Sequence record: PX418923.1
From: a phage
DNA: 50,008 nucleotides
Strand: one strand, 5' to 3'
Below are positions 28,267 through 50,008 of the stretch, piece after piece (position 1 is the stretch's first letter; every line of letters begins with the position of its first letter). A model generated the notes under the pieces. It was not told where the DNA came from, did not search any database, and saw only the letters and a list, made by a program, of their open reading frames with translations. Made by a program: the position numbers and the translations under genes.

Positions 28267-29025
28267 TTATTGTGTAATGCCATGCTGTGCGTACACTTCT
28301 TCTCGAATCCTACGCATGAACTCAGCCTGTTCTTTAGACGTGGCCCCTTTCAGTAGAGACTTCTCGGGACGCTGTAGAGGCGGACGCTCAGGAGCATTGA
28401 GTTGAGTGTTATAGCTAGTGGCAGTGTTAAGTTTGACCGAAGTGGTCGAGGTATTGAAAAGTGCCAGTACCATTGCTGGATTCCGGCTAGCAAGTTCTCC
28501 TAGTTCTTTAGGAGTAGTCCCAAGTTCTTTAGCTTTCGCTGCCATAACTTCAGGAGCCTTCTCGCCAAATTTCTGGAGGAGAGTATTATTTACTTGTGCC
28601 TTGTTTTGTTCAGCAGTCATTTGGACCTTCTCTTGAACAAGAAGATTACGCACAAGTTCAGTAACTGCTTGCTGATCAAGACCACTAGCTGGAGATGGTG
28701 TTTCTGCTGCCGGAGGTTGATTCTGGTTTTGCAGTCGTTCAATGATTTCTTCTACCGATTGAGTTTGCTGAAGCTTCGCTTGGAGTTCGGCAAGAGCCGC
28801 TTCCTTCTCTTGCAGTTGCTGCTTGAGTTGAGGAATGTATTGTTGAGCGTTAGCCAGCCCTTCGAGAGCTTTAGGCAGAGAATCATATTTCGGTTGGCCT
28901 TGCTCATTCTTGATAGACGCCAGCAGGTCCGCATAAGACGCATCAGGAGCAGAAGCCGGATTGGAAGCCTCCGGGGTTACCGGAGTAGGTTGTTGTTCAC
29001 TAAATACATCAGGCTGGTCAGCCAT
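28267..29025 (-). CDS. Scaffolding protein
   Basis: Q/A/E-rich predicted coiled coil, between portal and capsid genes. Confidence 0.55.
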   Translation of the reverse strand: MADQPDVFSEQQPTPVTPEASNPASAPDASYADLLASIKNEQGQPKYDSLPKALEGLANAQQYIPQLKQQLQEKEAALAELQAKLQQTQSVEEIIERLQNQNQPPAAETPSPASGLDQQAVTELVRNLLVQEKVQMTAEQNKAQVNNTLLQKFGEKAPEVMAAKAKELGTTPKELGELASRNPAMVLALFNTSTTSVKLNTATSYNTQLNAPERPPLQRPEKSLLKGATSKEQAEFMRRIREEVYAQHGITQ

Positions 29026-29147
29026 AGTATACCTCTAAGTAATTAATGTTAATTAATATATAATAATATTATTAATTATAATATTACTAATATATATATA
29101 TAAATATATTATACACATAGTATATACTTTTTTTAGAAGATAATCTC
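29026..29147. promoter_or_regulatory. AT-rich intergenic tract with TA repeats upstream of scaffold/capsid genes
   Basis: About 120 bp of almost pure A/T including (TA)n and TAGTATATACT, inside the late operon. Confidence 0.35.
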
Positions 29148-33335: not shown

Positions 33336-35099
33336 TTAAGATACAGTAACAATCGAGCCTGCTTTGTTCGTGACCCGGATTTTCACATTGATTGGCGATG
33401 CAGTCCCGTTATTGAATGTAACGGTGAAAGCCGCACCAGACGGTCCGTCCCCGTAGGTCGCAGATAGACCAGCAGAAATGATCGTCCCTGTGACGTCCCG
33501 CGCCTTTGAGCCAGTAGGGTTGCCATACGCAACTACATTCTGGTGCCCGCCAAACCCGTCGTCATATGCAACGTCAGCATTCAACACAAACGATCCGCTC
33601 ACGTTGAAAGTTTTTGTCAGGCTGCCAGATGCTGGAATCGTTCCGCTAAAGTCAACGACGTTGACATATTCTGGCGACCCAACTTGACCGCCATTCATGA
33701 GAACATCCACGTACCTACTAGCGAAAATAACAGCACCAGAATCAATTGCAGGTAAAGCAGTTTCCCCAAATGCCTGACCCCTCTCCCAATTTCCATTGAT
33801 CATTACATCGGTGTGCCCTACATATCCAAGCGGACTTCCAGCGAAGTTTCCACCGCCACCAGTAGGGCCGTACAGCCCGCAGAATTCTCTATTGCAAGAA
33901 TTGAAAACTGCCGTGTTACGTTTCGTGGAAGATGTCAACCCATTGGCCGTATTCATAATCCCCCAAATCGATTCGAACACACAATTGCTGAACGTTACAT
34001 CTACGTTACCGCCAGTCCCACTAACCGTCTTTGTCAGGAAGATGGCTTGCGACGAGAGATCAAAGAGGAGACATTCATTCAGGAATAGATGATTGTACGT
34101 GCAATCCTGAAGATGCATAGCGGTCCCACACTTATAGAAGTACACACGATTCAACGAAGTTGGACCAACGTAGTTATAGGTCGGCAACCCTGTTGCAACC
34201 CCAATAGTTTTCACAGCGTCTTGATAGCTAACGAAAGCAACATCTTCAAGAACGTTGCCAGTTATGTATCTGTTACTGCTCGCATCAGGATTGCCTTTCC
34301 TGATTAGGATTGCAGGATTTGGATTCACAGGAGTACCGGCTGGATAGAACGAAGTATCTACGAATGCCACCCCACGGATATCAAAGTTTTCGTTCCTAAA
34401 GTCGTTGAACGAAATATCCAGGGCACTGTTTCCATTGGTGTAGATCAGGCTTCCAACTCTACTAACCACATAACCAGCAGCTACAGCACCTGTCTTAAAA
34501 GTACCTCGAATTTTCACAGACGAAAAAAGTGTATCAGCTCCATCAAGGACGGCAGTGGAATTAATCCTAACTACGCCATCAGGAAGTTGAAGCTCTTTAT
34601 TTGCTGACAAGCAATACTCAAGTGCTGCTTTAAACGAAGCGGAAGAGTCCACAGATTCACTTACAACACCACCGAAGTCTTCCAACCTTACTTCGTCGGA
34701 GACACGTACCCAACAACCACTGACCCCAGGAGAGGTTTCTCCAGCTCCAGATAGGTACGCATTCAGGGTGCTATAAAGCCCATCCCAGGGGACAGTGGGG
34801 CTAATGATAGTCCCGCCATTGTGGTTAGAACGTGCCACTGTGGGGTCAAATTTAAAAAACCCACCACCTTGTTTGGTTCCAATCGTATGTTCTTTAGCAT
34901 AGAACAGTTGGTTATAATTTTGTCTAGCAGAACTTAGCTCTGACAAATTATTAATTACAACAGCACCCCTACCAATTAACCCAGCCCCATTTTGAGGAGA
35001 GCTAGTGTCGCTTAGGTTGACGCTAGTGAGGATATCTTCTAGATTAATAGTAAAGCTATTATCTGGTTTTTGTAGAGTGTCTACTCTCAACGTACTCAT
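33336..35099 (-). CDS. Tailspike/tail fiber protein (possible beta-helix depolymerase)
   Basis: 587 aa, Gly/Asn/Thr/Ser-rich repetitive composition; adjacent to tail fiber-like gene. Confidence 0.5.
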   Translation of the reverse strand: MSTLRVDTLQKPDNSFTINLEDILTSVNLSDTSSPQNGAGLIGRGAVVINNLSELSSARQNYNQLFYAKEHTIGTKQGGGFFKFDPTVARSNHNGGTIISPTVPWDGLYSTLNAYLSGAGETSPGVSGCWVRVSDEVRLEDFGGVVSESVDSSASFKAALEYCLSANKELQLPDGVVRINSTAVLDGADTLFSSVKIRGTFKTGAVAAGYVVSRVGSLIYTNGNSALDISFNDFRNENFDIRGVAFVDTSFYPAGTPVNPNPAILIRKGNPDASSNRYITGNVLEDVAFVSYQDAVKTIGVATGLPTYNYVGPTSLNRVYFYKCGTAMHLQDCTYNHLFLNECLLFDLSSQAIFLTKTVSGTGGNVDVTFSNCVFESIWGIMNTANGLTSSTKRNTAVFNSCNREFCGLYGPTGGGGNFAGSPLGYVGHTDVMINGNWERGQAFGETALPAIDSGAVIFASRYVDVLMNGGQVGSPEYVNVVDFSGTIPASGSLTKTFNVSGSFVLNADVAYDDGFGGHQNVVAYGNPTGSKARDVTGTIISAGLSATYGDGPSGAAFTVTFNNGTASPINVKIRVTNKAGSIVTVS

Positions 35100-35689
35100 G
35101 GTTGTACTTCTCCGTTAGCAATAGTCCAGAACGAATTGTCGCCAATAGTAACTACTTGACCCGCATCAATAGTCATCGTAGGTCCAAAAGACCAAGCGTT
35201 AACATTGTCTGGTATGTCAATACTATTTGTTACATGCTGTCCGTGCCAACTAATAACTGAGAAAGCACTTCCCATTGGTGGGTTGGTTCCATTAAGTTGT
35301 TCTTGTAAAGAAGCATCACCGGCTGCTCTAGCAGCAGCTTCTTCATCAAGCTCTTGTTTACGTACTGCTTCAGTAGGAGCTGTAGCCTTACGTAGGTTAG
35401 TCATACGCTGTTGCCCAGCGTTAAAGGTTCCCTCTAATGTATCCCCCTTAATGTTGTAATAGCGTACATCACCATCAGCAACAGTAAGAAGACTATCAGG
35501 GTTGGTTACATCTGTCTTAACATTAAGCAAAGCATAAGAGTTCATGTCCAAATCTTGGAGCATGGTGTTGTTACCACCCTTCAAGTGAAGAACATCCTCA
35601 TTAATACTTTGCTCAATAACATCGAAGTTATAATTAATCTTCGTGACATTGTAACCAGACGTAATGTTTTGTAACGTTATGTCGGTCAT
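35096..35689 (-). CDS. Tail fiber/adaptor protein (first gene of late operon)
   Basis: ATG at 35689 with AAGAG RBS after a structured 5' leader. Confidence 0.4.
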   Translation of the reverse strand: MTDITLQNITSGYNVTKINYNFDVIEQSINEDVLHLKGGNNTMLQDLDMNSYALLNVKTDVTNPDSLLTVADGDVRYYNIKGDTLEGTFNAGQQRMTNLRKATAPTEAVRKQELDEEAAARAAGDASLQEQLNGTNPPMGSAFSVISWHGQHVTNSIDIPDNVNAWSFGPTMTIDAGQVVTIGDNSFWTIANGEVQP

Positions 35690-35870
35690 AAGAGTCTCTT
35701 ATTATTCTTAACGCTCACTTGCGTGAGCAACAATACCTTTAGCATTAAGTGCCGAAGGCGTATAGTCCTCTCACATGTTAGTATGTTCTCCTCTTCATGA
35801 GAAGAACACCTACATAGCAACTCCCTGTCACTACATGAGGAGAACCTTAAGGCCCACTTTTTAGTGGGAG

Positions 35871-35891
35871 GAATTTCTGCTAGAAAATTTT
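35871..35891 (+). promoter_or_regulatory. Conserved repeated element, copy 4 (GAATTTCTGCTAGAAAATTTT), coordinates approximate
   Basis: Same core as copies at 14260, 39131 and 43232; preceded by CCCACT-TTTT-AGTGGG hairpin and followed by GGGTCAATGCAACTAATG. Confidence 0.4.
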
Positions 35892-36293
35892 AAGGGTCAA
35901 TGCAACTAATGAACCCCCTCCACTAACCCCCTGGCCTACCCCTATAGGCAAAATCTATGAGGAGGTGGGGTGTAATATACTCCCACTATCACCACCACAT
36001 TTTGCCTCACATGTAAATAGGCCTCTAAGCCTAGTGGCACTAGGGGTACAGGCTTATACGCTGGCAAGCCAGCACATGTGCTTATGTGTATGTGCGACTA
36101 CCGTCGCGTATAGGCTTATAAAACGTGCTAACAGCACACTCATACCTGGCATGCATCATGCTACGCATACAGGTACGCTTCTATGCACGTGAACAAGCTG
36201 TATAAATAACCAGTTGACTGTCACCGACACCCCATGGTTGAATGGCCCCACTGTTTGATATCGCCCAGCAACATGGCCAGTATCAAACAGGGG

Positions 36294-36322
36294 TTGACAA
36301 GCTAAGTCGAAAGGCATAGCAT
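36294..36322 (+). promoter_or_regulatory. Sigma70-like promoter P1 (TTGACA-17-TAGCAT), coordinates approximate
   Basis: Perfect -35 TTGACA, 17-bp spacer, -10 TAGCAT; preceded by inverted repeat CTGTTTGATA/TATCAAACAG. Confidence 0.45.
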
Positions 36323-36476
36323 GTGAATCGTAAGTCGGAGCCGACAATAATCGTTGGTTCTGATGTAACGGAGCCAACAATCTTGTTCTCCAGTCTACGG
36401 ACACAATGGGGAATGACACGATAGGTTCTAGGGCATGAGCCAGTTAGTGTAAGGCCGGCAGGCATCTAGTTGGGGA

Positions 36477-36505
36477 TTGACAAGAGTTAGCGAAGTATGT
36501 AACAT
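36477..36505 (+). promoter_or_regulatory. Sigma70-like promoter P2 (TTGACA-17-TAACAT), coordinates approximate
   Basis: Perfect -35 TTGACA, 17-bp spacer, -10 TAACAT; flanks GGGGATTGACAAG...ATGTAAGTC conserved with P1. Confidence 0.45.
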
Positions 36506-36726
36506 GTAAGTCAGTCGGGAAGTAAGGGACTAGGACAAACCTAGCATTGCTAACCTAACTCGCCAGCTACGGGGCTGGACTAGCCGGGATACCGACCGGG
36601 AGACGAAGGCAGTGTAACGTTAGCCTCAATAGCGTTACTGACCGGCTGAAAGCAGCCACAATGTAACAAACGTTCTTTAACAATATGTCTAGTGTGCTGT
36701 AGTGTATCCACATAGGAGGCACTACC

Positions 36727-36948
36727 ATGCGAATCAATCCGAACGACTATGCTATCAATCCGGCAATCATCCTGGCTGGGGTAGCTTGCAGCAATGGTAT
36801 GCGTATGCTAGCTAACGAAATCTTGAAGGCTAGTCCGGCAGCTAAAAGAGAGATTGAACACTTTCAACAAGTGGACAGTTCTCTAAGAGGCATGCTTAGT
36901 ATCCATGTAGCTGCTACAATAGTCTATCGCATGAATGTCGCGTATTGA
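36727..36948 (+). CDS. Hypothetical early protein (73 aa)
   Basis: Strong AGGAGG RBS; flanked by about 35-bp repeats. Confidence 0.5.
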   Translation: MRINPNDYAINPAIILAGVACSNGMRMLANEILKASPAAKREIEHFQQVDSSLRGMLSIHVAATIVYRMNVAY

Positions 36949-37043
36949 AAAATACGCTACACTACAGCACATTAGACATATGTTCTTTAACAATGTGGAT
37001 CAGTAGGCATTAGTAGACCCTCATCTTATACGGGAGAACTACT

Positions 37044-37193
37044 ATGCGTAATGAACGTCAAGCCTACCTTGCCCTTAAGAGCCAGGAAACTGTAGCTCAA
37101 AAAGTGGAACGTATCAGCAAGATGGACAAGCCTTTTGCTTTCAGACTGGCAGCCATCATTGCATGTGACACTAACAAAGGTAAGGTTTGGTGA
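37044..37193 (+). CDS. Small hypothetical protein (49 aa)
   Basis: GGGAG RBS then ATG; below ORF-track size cutoff. Confidence 0.3.
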   Translation: MRNERQAYLALKSQETVAQKVERISKMDKPFAFRLAAIIACDTNKGKVW

Positions 37194-37774
37194 GGCACTC
37201 GAAAGAGTGTCTACTAATGTCTACTGGTCTACATAGCCTAGCCACTCAGGCGTCGATAACGGGAAATGCGATGCTGGCCGGCTTGAGATTCCCTAAGAAA
37301 ATTTTAGGGCTTGACAAAGCGACAGAAAGTGGTAATATGGCTCCCAACAAAGGCAAACGGGCCTGGAGGCTTACAAAGCTCAAACAGTACGTCCCGACAG
37401 GGGGCGGCCTAAGTAAGTAAAGCGCTAGCTGGCTTCGGCCTCAAGGTGAGCGCATGAAAGCGGACGGTACAAAGCGTGGAAGGTTTGTAGAACACGCCAG
37501 TAATGCCTACTATACAGGCATCCGTATCGGGCTCTAGGATAGTTAGAGACGGGCTGTAGCTTGCAGCCATAGCAGGGGAGGATTAGTAGCGTCTGACAAA
37601 CGTGAACCGCCAGAACTGTAAGCCGGAGCAGCTAGCAGGGTGCTACCCTCCGAAGTCCCGCGAAGGGCAAAGTCTTTTTAGACTTAGGTGAACGTTCTGT
37701 ATTACCAATGCAGCGCACTGATAAAGCGTATAGTGCAGAGCAGAACGTTCAACCTAAACCTAGGAGGAACTAAT

Positions 37775-40215: not shown

Positions 40216-40298
40216 GCGGGAGTAGCCCCGTCAGTCTTCTAAACTGATAAGGGTAATTGGAGCTGAAAATGTGAGTTCGAATCTCACCTCCCGCGCCA
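40216..40298 (+). tRNA. tRNA-like element with canonical T-arm, acceptor stem and encoded CCA but no recognisable D-arm
   Basis: 5' GCGGGAG pairs with 3' CTCCCGC; T-arm GTGAG-TTCGAAT-CTCAC; discriminator G and CCA at 40296-40298; internal hairpin TCAGT-CTTCTAA-ACTGA could be an anticodon arm (TCT). Confidence 0.4.
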
Positions 40299-49845: not shown

Positions 49846-50008
49846 ATGTGCTGTGATGGCTGGTTGATAGGTCCAGAAGACAGTAATGAAAGCATTGGTG
49901 AATGTCCTGATTGTGGACATGAAGCTGTAGTTACAACATATGTAAATGGTGAGCAAAGTTTTGCGGCCACTTATGGGTGCAATTACTCACCACTAGATTG
50001 CCCGACTT
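49846..50008 (+). CDS. Small Cys-rich zinc-ribbon protein, 5' part (runs off the window end; continues at 1-159)
   Basis: GGAG RBS 9 nt before ATG 49846; CDGW...CPDCGH; the reading frame continues into the duplicated first bases of the window. Confidence 0.4.
   Translation, partial: MCCDGWLIGPEDSNESIGECPDCGHEAVVTTYVNGEQSFAATYGCNYSPLDCPT

Follow-up and report, generated by a model that had tools for sequence, protein, structure and literature searches.

A probable joined genome end with host-type promoters, boxA motifs and gene-enclosing duplexes in a PA11-like Pseudomonas phage

The window analysed here, a stretch of 50,008 nucleotides (nt) of phage DNA (record PX418923.1), contains at 35690-36726 a region of about 1 kilobase (kb) that spans from the ATG of a minus-strand gene (35096-35689, 197 amino acids, aa) to the ATG of the open reading frame (ORF) 36727-36948, and that had been described in a sequence-only reading as a gene-free control region with two promoters. 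The closest DNA matches of the window were Pseudomonas phage PA11 (96%), PSA11, PP21, TC6, K4 and O4, all of them podophages of P. aeruginosa in the genus Paundecimvirus of the Zobellviridae. A scan of IMG/VR with a conserved 21-mer again returned only O4, Ab05 and PA11. The early and replication genes, including those for primase-helicase, DNA polymerase and ribonucleotide reductase, are located on the plus strand from about 36.7 kb across the contig closure to about 14.9 kb; the structural genes, encoding tail-fibre proteins, terminase, portal and internal virion protein, occupy the minus strand from 35689 down to 14983. Positions 1-127 are identical to 49882-50008 (127 nt), which is the k-mer closure of a circular assembly with an arbitrary start; therefore, the window is a circularly closed contig and the true genome measures about 49.9 kb (about 49,881 base pairs, bp). 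As no RNA polymerase was found among the ten largest ORFs of the window, the host polymerase probably transcribes the whole genome. In our reading, which we consider fairly probable, two genome ends are joined at this locus, and the left one is built in the style of T7, with host promoters, boxA elements and duplexes that enclose ORFs.

The anatomy of the left end was derived from an alignment of 10-12 relatives, in which conserved blocks alternate with mosaic ones. Three predicted early promoters and one dyad lie at the following positions:

36294-36322, plus strand: early promoter P1, TTGACA-17-TAGCAT, from a hexamer scan; its -35 is kept in all relatives
36477-36505, plus strand: early promoter P2, TTGACA-17-TAACAT, from a hexamer scan and from homology to LUZ19
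37311-37338, plus strand: early promoter P3, TTGACA-16-TAATAT with TG upstream of the -10, outside 35690-36726
36248-36293, unstranded: dyad TGTTTGA ... TCAAACA abutting the P1 -35, a possible operator

All three promoters score 10/12, the spacer measuring 17 nt in P1 and P2 and 16 nt in P3. The whole 50 kb contains eight 10/12 sigma70 matches, three of which are P1, P2 and P3, all on the early strand. With both strands of the 50 kb counted, there are two occurrences of the exact pattern TTGACA-N17-TARCAT, at P1 and P2, versus 0.019 expected from base composition, and GGGNTTGACAAG, with one mismatch allowed, is found at three sites, again at P1, P2 and P3 (37307). P3 is preceded by the A/T-rich AGAAAATTTTAGGG. 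The positions of P1 and P2 are kept in 10-12 PA11-like relatives. The two had been called near-identical, and their perfect -35 hexamers, 17-bp spacers and orientation towards the early genes hold true, but the wording overstated the likeness: they share only the hexamers and GGGG(A)TTGACAAG, their spacers differ, and the downstream GTAAGTC lies 6 nt farther from the -10 in P1 than in P2. The suggestion of an early promoter cluster is supported, with three promoters pointing into the plus-strand early genes, of which P1 and P2 are conserved in position and P2 is homologous to a LUZ19 promoter. P1, P2 and P3 are the predicted sigma70-dependent early promoters for the host polymerase, and transcription would start at each of them.

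About 90 phiKMV-like phages carry, about 1.1 kb from their left end, a site that has 80-87% identity to P2 and the preceding 54 nt. The LUZ19 homologue of P2 is annotated as a sigma70 promoter at 1147-1182. At the left end of LUZ19, ONT-cappable-seq found five strong promoters, and four sigma70-like ones were active in a reporter; the P2-homologous site falls in this cluster of mapped early host promoters (PMC10914365). P1 plus its transcript start, GACAACCAA, recurs in the T7-like phage HHBS14_1. The 10-bp inverted repeat ahead of P1 that the sequence-only reading had reported is present, with CTGTTTGATA at 36251-36260 pairing with TATCAAACAG at 36281-36290, and it sits in a 20-nt pair of 80% complementarity that ends at the P1 -35. 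K4, FBPa8 and DMTU_1 retain the dyad, its spacer being shortened by 11 nt, and 36248-36293 is possibly an operator.

Two further observations concern P3. An A/T-rich 14-mer, AGAAAATTTTA(A)GGG, occurs at 35882-35895, beside the terminal repeat described below, and at 37296-37309, directly upstream of the P3 -35, where it may act as an UP element. Moreover, P3 lies within a 77-aa ORF with a TTG start (37187-37420) that is ORF056 in PA11 and is unannotated in K4. It is possible that this ORF is spurious and that a second untranslated leader occupies 37235-37690.

Downstream of P2, two boxA motifs and two cassettes, each consisting of a long-range duplex around one small ORF, follow each other on the early strand:

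36672-36684, plus strand: boxA-1, GTTCTTTAACAAT, exact GYTCTTTAANA match at 36672-36682
36982-36994, plus strand: boxA-2, GTTCTTTAACAAT, exact GYTCTTTAANA match at 36982-36992
36683-36981, plus strand: cassette 1, a 24-bp duplex around ORF 36727-36948 (73 aa)
36683-36706 and 36958-36981, plus strand: 5' and 3' arms of cassette 1, an inverted repeat of 24 bp
36940-36957, plus strand: stop hairpin of cassette 1 with TGA in the loop, preceding the 3' arm
36993-37234, plus strand: cassette 2, a 25-bp duplex around ORF 37044-37193 (49 aa, homologue of LKA1 ORF1)
36993-37017 and 37210-37234, plus strand: 5' and 3' arms of cassette 2, an inverted repeat of 25 bp
37196-37209, plus strand: GAAA hairpin of cassette 2, between the ORF and the 3' arm

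The boxA elements and long-range stems, which the sequence-only reading had missed, begin inside 35690-36726 (36672-36706). The sequence GYTCTTTAANA is the gamma-proteobacterial boxA consensus, an RNA site bound by NusB-NusE (PMC5725501). The window contains three matches to it versus 0.45 expected, two of these being boxA-1 and boxA-2, which are 310 nt apart on the early strand. The first copy is located about 160 nt downstream of P2 and before the first ATG, in untranslated RNA. The second reads G[T/C]TCTTTAACAAT in 12/12 aligned PA11-like sequences, and every retrieved PA11-like locus that spans the boxA position has an exact consensus match. The same motif (CCGCTCTTTAACAA) was found at the equivalent place in phiPLS27, HHBS14_1, LKA1 and phiNV3. 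In T7 (L046) an exact boxA, CGCTCTTTAACAAT, unannotated in RefSeq, is present at 813-823 between promoter A3 (750) and gene 0.3 (925). Both copies in the window are accordingly candidate NusB/NusE binding and antitermination motifs of the rrn type, on which Nus factors might load. A literature search returned no paper mentioning boxA together with phiKMV, LKA1, LUZ19 or LUZ24.

Each boxA is directly followed by a 5' arm, the partner of which lies beyond one small early ORF. For the duplex of cassette 1, nine sequences of four lineages could be compared; 97% of the cells are paired and 15/30 pairs are compensated, whereas none of 500 shuffles was as good and the slid controls gave at most three such pairs. 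Compensated changes were also seen within the genus, in contig L028 (A-U to G-C and C-G to U-A). The duplex of cassette 2 is 100% paired in 11 distinct sequences, and 4/4 substitutions keep the pair; the DNA mismatches in its arms are all G.U on the plus strand. Over the arms of both alignments 53 G.U cells (41 in cassette 2, 12 in cassette 1) and zero A.C cells were counted, which argues for a plus-strand RNA and against a repeat that acts at the DNA level. The 6-bp stop hairpin covaries as well (GCGTAT/ATACGC, GCCCCT/AGGGGC, GCGCCT/AGGCGC), and the minimum-free-energy fold of 36666-37250 (585 nt) forms both long-range stems with z = -8.8. Altogether, the alignments indicate that the pairing is kept by selection and acts as plus-strand RNA, and by analogy with known systems the duplexes may be cleaved by RNase III.

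The conserved frame consists of the arms, the Shine-Dalgarno (SD) leader (TCCACAnAGGAGGCACTACC-ATG) and the stop hairpin, and it encloses at least four unrelated ORFs: 73 aa in the window, PA11 and TC6, 71 aa in K4, O4 and IME180 and 57 aa in HHBS14_1, with further framed ORFs in phiNV3 and L028. In LKA1, a homologue of the second ORF of the window is enclosed by arms of the first type. Cassette 1 is absent and only one boxA is left in PP21, FBPa8, DMTU_1 and Ty, and HHBS10_2 has another sequence at this place. Recombination between the two boxA copies, with loss or gain of the cassette, would fit this polymorphism.

With respect to coding capacity, 35690-36726 is overlapped by nine ORFs of 32-87 aa, none of which is conserved across relatives. 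In ten relatives most of them have lost an intact frame through stop codons, missing starts or indels with lengths that are not multiples of three; the handful still open is confined to a nearly invariant block and lacks an SD sequence. For the four largest ORFs, which were tested, no PHROG family was found, in contrast to the small early ORFs on the flanks, each of which belongs to one. Rfam scans of the region, by gathering threshold and by E-value, gave nothing credible, the top match being gyrA RNA with 17 bits and E = 0.8. That there is no credible ORF over about 1 kb, as had been proposed, is borne out by these data.

Between P1 and boxA-1 the following elements can be distinguished:

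36367-36470, plus strand: conserved structured element between P1 and P2, kept in all PA11-like phages and predicted to be transcribed from P1 only
about 36384-36415, 36416-36450 and 36454-36463, plus strand: hairpins of this element in the consensus fold
36506-36671, plus strand: untranslated leader downstream of P2, mosaic in relatives

The inter-promoter segment of about 110 nt aligns between the PA11-like and the phiKMV-like families. In the consensus fold 99% of the cells are paired, with seven compensated pairs, mostly between the two phage groups, and a structured leader RNA made from P1, though not proven, is likely. An idea that this RNA serves as an RsmA/CsrA sponge was abandoned, since clear enrichment of its five GGA motifs was lacking and the conserved ACGGA is placed in a stem rather than a loop. 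The two imperfect direct repeats that had been noted between the promoters are present (36336-36357 and 36369-36388, CGGAGCC), but their weight was misjudged: relatives carry one copy only, therefore this is a partial duplication of about 32 nt specific to the window's lineage and the repeats are not iterons. For the same reason, namely that the first copy exists only in this window, an attenuator with alternative hairpins formed by the two CGGAGCC repeats (terminator-like at 36353-36378) was dropped. The leader downstream of P2 ends with hairpins at 36613-36637 and 36644-36657, the second being 14 nt upstream of boxA-1, and folds weakly better than shuffles (z = -1.85). Its first approximately 100 nt (36506-36605) are unique to this phage: 36500-36615 had no match in 50,697 phage records, and the sequence on both sides is common to relatives. 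In TC6 an extra gene is found just downstream of P2.

On the other side of the locus, the late leader, the probable genome ends and a block of palindromes are arranged as follows:

35690-35900, minus strand: structured 5' leader of the late operon (tail-fibre/terminase), about 95% identity in ten relatives
35713-35728, minus strand: GCAA-capped hairpin in the late leader
35751-35759, minus strand: UUCG-capped hairpin in the late leader
35900-35895, minus strand: TTGACC, followed by 17 nt and GAAATT, a weak late promoter candidate at the far end of the leader
35901-35974, unstranded: probable direct terminal repeat (genome-end junction), from the K4 and O4 record ends
36005-36190, unstranded: short palindromes in a near-invariant block, located between terminal repeat and P1

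The 214-nt minus-strand leader RNA folds with z = -4.06 and contains both the GNRA-type and the UUCG-capped hairpin that had been predicted. The -35 of the weak promoter candidate is TTGACA in PA11, K4, O4 and TC6 and degenerate in PP21 and FBPa8. The next 74 bp in the window, 35901-35974, are present with 100% identity at both the start and the end of the K4 and O4 records, where they carry no repeat annotation. The ends of the TC6 record map to 35918 and 35957, each 56 nt short of the K4/O4 ends; the IME180 record was opened at 35958/35960 and that of Ty at 36001/36002. Among Logan contigs (assemblies of public runs), three short late-side ones stop at 35925, 35930 and 35954 and two long early-side ones begin at 35946 and 35960. 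Altogether, the breaks of TC6, IME180, Ty, the split PPAT contigs and the five Logan contigs are all within 35918-36028, and the right-arm contig ending at 35954 overlaps the left-arm contig starting at 35946 by 9 nt. A terminal repeat with under-sampled extreme ends would give exactly this break pattern and this overlap, and a short (74-bp) direct terminal repeat at 35901-35974 therefore appears probable.

If the genome ends are at the assembly breaks, the late leader and the early promoters would be located at opposite ends of the virion DNA and would be adjacent only in the circular assembly or in concatemers. A single shared control region with the late operon diverging on its other side, as had been proposed, is unsupported in that form. 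The accompanying suggestion of a packaging site or physical ends fared better, in that many independent assemblies end at 35901-36002, and physical ends at this place can be inferred. For the replication origin that the sequence-only reading had also considered, the region gave no evidence. In the literature, no termini have been reported for the genus; the papers mentioning Paundecimvirus are host-range studies, and the TC6 paper is silent on ends and promoters. The position of the repeat has a practical use, as it tells annotators where the genomes of Paundecimvirus should begin.

An insertion hot spot was noted at 35892/35893, between the late leader and the terminal repeat. O4 has an annotated endonuclease gene there, one Logan contig has a 155-aa ORF at the same place, and several other phages carry a duplication of about 45 nt of GAATTTCTGCTAGAAAATTTTAAGGG (hot-spot loci L006, 105-559; L034, 978-1445; L009, L010, L030, L031 and L033).

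The block at 36005-36190 comprises six palindromes of different sequence (CTAGTG-G-CACTAG, GCTGGC-AA-GCCAGC, GCACAT-N12-ATGTGC, GCGAC-TACC-GTCGC, GTGCT-AAC-AGCAC and GCATG-CAT-CATGC) and two copies of AGGCTTATA. In 11 phages it shows long invariant runs, with variation limited to loops and centres, and it has no match outside the PA11-like phages and no conserved ORF. By its position alone the block is a candidate for end-processing or packaging signals. Hairpin promoters in the style of N4 were considered for it and dropped, as no virion RNA polymerase was found; the 1554-aa protein belongs to an internal virion protein family. In PA11, TC6 and Ty the adjoining segment 36191-36290 is exchanged for a different sequence with a small ORF in it.

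Elsewhere in the window, an element at 40216-40295 on the plus strand resembles a tRNA (44.3 bits versus the Rfam tRNA model), its D-arm being cut to 3 nt, its variable region measuring about 20 nt and its anticodon loop reading CUUCUAA; it was not called by ARAGORN, and the TC6 paper describes that phage as being without an intact tRNA. At 29026-29135, directly upstream of the minus-strand structural gene 28267-29025, about 110 nt are nearly pure A/T with TATA-type repeats, for which a strong late promoter or UP region is a candidate and bent DNA another. No shared late-promoter motif was evident across the minus-strand intergenic gaps, because most of these gaps contain small ORFs.

From the sequence motifs, their conservation, the covariation of the duplexes and the parallel to rRNA operons and T7, all of which are observed, the following course of events can be proposed. 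The host sigma70 polymerase would start at the tandem promoters P1 and P2 and, further on, at P3, and P1 transcripts would carry the conserved structured leader that is common with phiKMV-like phages. The early transcripts would have an untranslated leader of 215-400 nt running to boxA, where NusB/NusE and other Nus factors would load as on rRNA operons and render the polymerase Rho-resistant in the untranslated leader, with possibly faster transcription. The Nus complex would hold the 5' arm that follows boxA until its complement is transcribed 250 nt downstream. The resulting duplex of 24-25 bp would enclose one small early gene, and its cleavage by RNase III would release a stable monocistronic mRNA with base-paired ends. 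The unit of boxA, 5' arm, ORF with SD sequence and 3' arm is repeated for the second gene, and the conserved frames could let co-infecting phages swap the enclosed ORF by recombination.

In a wider and more tentative interpretation, which may well turn out not to hold, boxA and, directly after it, a long-range RNase III-type duplex framing an exchangeable early ORF form a portable 'rRNA-operon mimic' common to virulent Pseudomonas podophages of the Zobellviridae (PA11-like) and the Autographiviridae (LKA1, phiNV3 and phiPLS27-like), which would recruit the rRNA antitermination complex and frame swaps of moron genes. Processive antitermination in phages is known mainly from the lambdoid N and Q proteins and from HK022 put RNA. 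To our knowledge, there is no earlier account, for these Pseudomonas phages, of a strictly lytic phage using boxA in the rrn style and independently of N. If true, the mimic would protect long leaders from Rho, speed early transcription and maybe transcription-driven genome entry, deliver the 5' arm to its distant partner and allow early moron genes to be swapped between unrelated phages. It would also explain how a phage without a polymerase of its own moves the host enzyme through several hundred nt of leader, and why the first early genes are so freely exchanged. The strong promoters, the antitermination tag and the processing stems would be testable compact parts for Pseudomonas synthetic biology and for the engineering of therapeutic phages.

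Several points weigh against the proposed left end and its working. The literature yielded no transcriptome of a PA11-like phage. The first boxA is mismatched in K4, O4 and IME180 (GCTCATTAACA), so that this copy is not always consensus, and the phiKMV-like phages share P2, but over their first 2.2 kb a consensus boxA is missing. Near boxA no boxC is definable, the 5' arm standing in its place, and to call the hairpin at 36644-36657 boxB-like is only a guess. The covariation of the P1-P2 element comes mainly from two phage groups and amounts to effectively two data points. With regard to the ends, the window closes across 35901-35974 with 127-nt k-mers and two long Logan contigs span it too; thus junction-spanning molecules exist, which means concatemers or a genome without fixed ends. 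The contig breaks could instead be caused by poor sequencing of a C-rich/G-rich tract: a C-rich tract at 35913-35941 is located inside the probable repeat, and the minus strand of relatives reads there GGGG-N7-GGGGG-N3-GGGG-N1-GGGGG, a G-quadruplex-type pattern; in the window, a substitution interrupts one of the runs. These points lead to an alternative in which the genome is circularly permuted or of the cos type and without fixed ends here, the control region is continuous and divergent, and assemblies break in this tract through poor sequencing. It would also account for the right-arm contigs stopping in the C tract (35918-35930) and the left-arm ones starting just past it (35946-35960), as at a coverage hole, for homopolymer errors at one contig end and for the deposition of IME180 as circular. 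We nevertheless consider it unlikely, because the whole 74 bp including the C tract stand unchanged at both ends of K4 and O4, the TC6 ends are placed symmetrically with respect to them, the contig overlap at 35946-35954 needs terminal redundancy, and a short direct terminal repeat that loses its extreme ends in tagmented libraries predicts the exact pattern.

The part played by 36367-36470 is less clear-cut. Directly upstream of the P2 -35, and with its most conserved part (36423-36476) being the part common with the phiKMV-like phages and always attached to a promoter, it could matter as DNA, as an UP element or factor site boosting P2, and not as a structured RNA made from P1. This is conceivable but rather doubtful in view of the nearly complete pairing of the fold and its compensated pairs, which include a C-G to U-A switch inside the PA11-like phages, and of an upstream promoter that is predicted to fire into the element at similar distance in both phage groups. 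For the cassettes, the inverted repeats and the 13-nt direct repeats might be DNA features of a small mobile element, that is, terminal inverted repeats and a target-site duplication, carrying a moron ORF; the presence or absence of cassette 1 among close relatives, the single GTTCTTTAACAAT left behind where it is absent and the unrelated ORFs between the same arms would agree with that. We judge this quite improbable. The supposed duplication is a fixed functional motif that matches boxA and is found in T7 and four other lineages at the corresponding position, which speaks against a target-site duplication, and a boxA also precedes cassette 2, which is never absent and shows no insertion polymorphism. 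Furthermore, the arm mismatches are of the G.U type without any A.C, the arms covary and are not conserved like a transposase site, no transposase or integrase was seen in or beside the cassettes, and recombination between the two boxA copies accounts for the polymorphism equally well. Hidden small protein-coding genes in 35690-36726 are a very improbable explanation. Automated annotation has called ORFs of 30-87 aa here (K4 gp01 and ORF rows of HHBS10_2 and DMTU_1 in GenBank), and a 41-aa gene (ORF053) is plausible in PA11, PSA11, TC6 and Ty, whose sequence at 36191-36290 is a variant of their own; the ORFs of the window itself, however, break down in relatives, the four largest lack a PHROG family and those still open lie in invariant DNA without an SD sequence.

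Among known systems, the phiKMV-like phages (LUZ19 P002-P006) have P2 with its 54 upstream nt in common with the window and, in a looser way, also the inter-promoter segment in full, and they have the same layout of promoter, about 110 nt and promoter at about 1.1 kb from the left end. For their part, they encode their own RNA polymerase, belong to the Autographiviridae and not to the Zobellviridae, and have neither a consensus boxA nor ORF-enclosing stems in the first 2.2 kb. The framing of exchangeable ORFs resembles the promoter-early stem-loop (PeSL) elements, reportedly described by Arbiol et al. in 2010 as mobile regulatory cassettes of T4-type phages. In both cases, small early ORFs that are unrelated to each other are framed, within a hyperplastic region, by conserved regulatory flanks, which can serve as recombination sites for gain, loss and swap of the ORF, and in HHBS14_1, LKA1 and phiNV3 the 3' arm overlaps the next early promoter, which is a PeSL-like trait. 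The phage flanks differ in that they pair across the ORF, have a boxA ahead and have no sequence relation to PeSL.

The E. coli rrn operon (L047) is alike in the order of the parts. Its promoters P1 and P2 are 119 bp apart, versus 183 bp for the tandem promoters of the phage, and its boxA at 2205-2215 fits the same consensus. At 4-5 nt past this boxA the 16S stem begins with its 5' arm, the complement of which comes just after the 16S, as in the phage, where the 5' arm of the long-range duplex is within a few nt of boxA and the complement comes after the enclosed gene. The unit is repeated for a second gene in both: in rrn, a second boxA is located in the spacer before the 23S and is followed by AATCTGG, which is similar to the T7 sequence after boxA. 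The Nus complex on boxA resists Rho and is thought to hand the 5' strand to its downstream complement, forming the RNase III site (PMC8632103). The phage differs in enclosing ORFs of 49-73 aa in place of structural RNAs of 1.5-2.9 kb and in having no recognisable boxC, and any function of the unit in a phage mRNA is a prediction.

T7, much like the layout proposed here, has a terminal repeat (160 bp), followed a few hundred bp later by three tandem host sigma70 promoters (A1, A2, A3) that point into small early genes, and an exact boxA between the last promoter and the structure before the first gene (R0.3 region, gene 0.3). RNase III processing of T7 early mRNA is established. The T7 R sites are local hairpins between genes, whereas the phage arms are 182-251 nt apart and enclose a whole ORF; for this reason, the duplexes were not assigned to the T7 type of RNase III site, the local intergenic hairpin, although they would act in the manner of an R site. 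In addition, boxA is repeated per gene in the phage, sequence homology to T7 is confined to boxA, and the phage appears to have no RNA polymerase of its own, so that the host enzyme would do all transcription. By itself, a tandem of sigma70 promoters at a podophage left end would be ordinary and is expected; the repeated combination of boxA and an ORF-enclosing duplex is less ordinary, and for this arrangement T7, with A1-A3, boxA and R0.3, is the nearest phage precedent.

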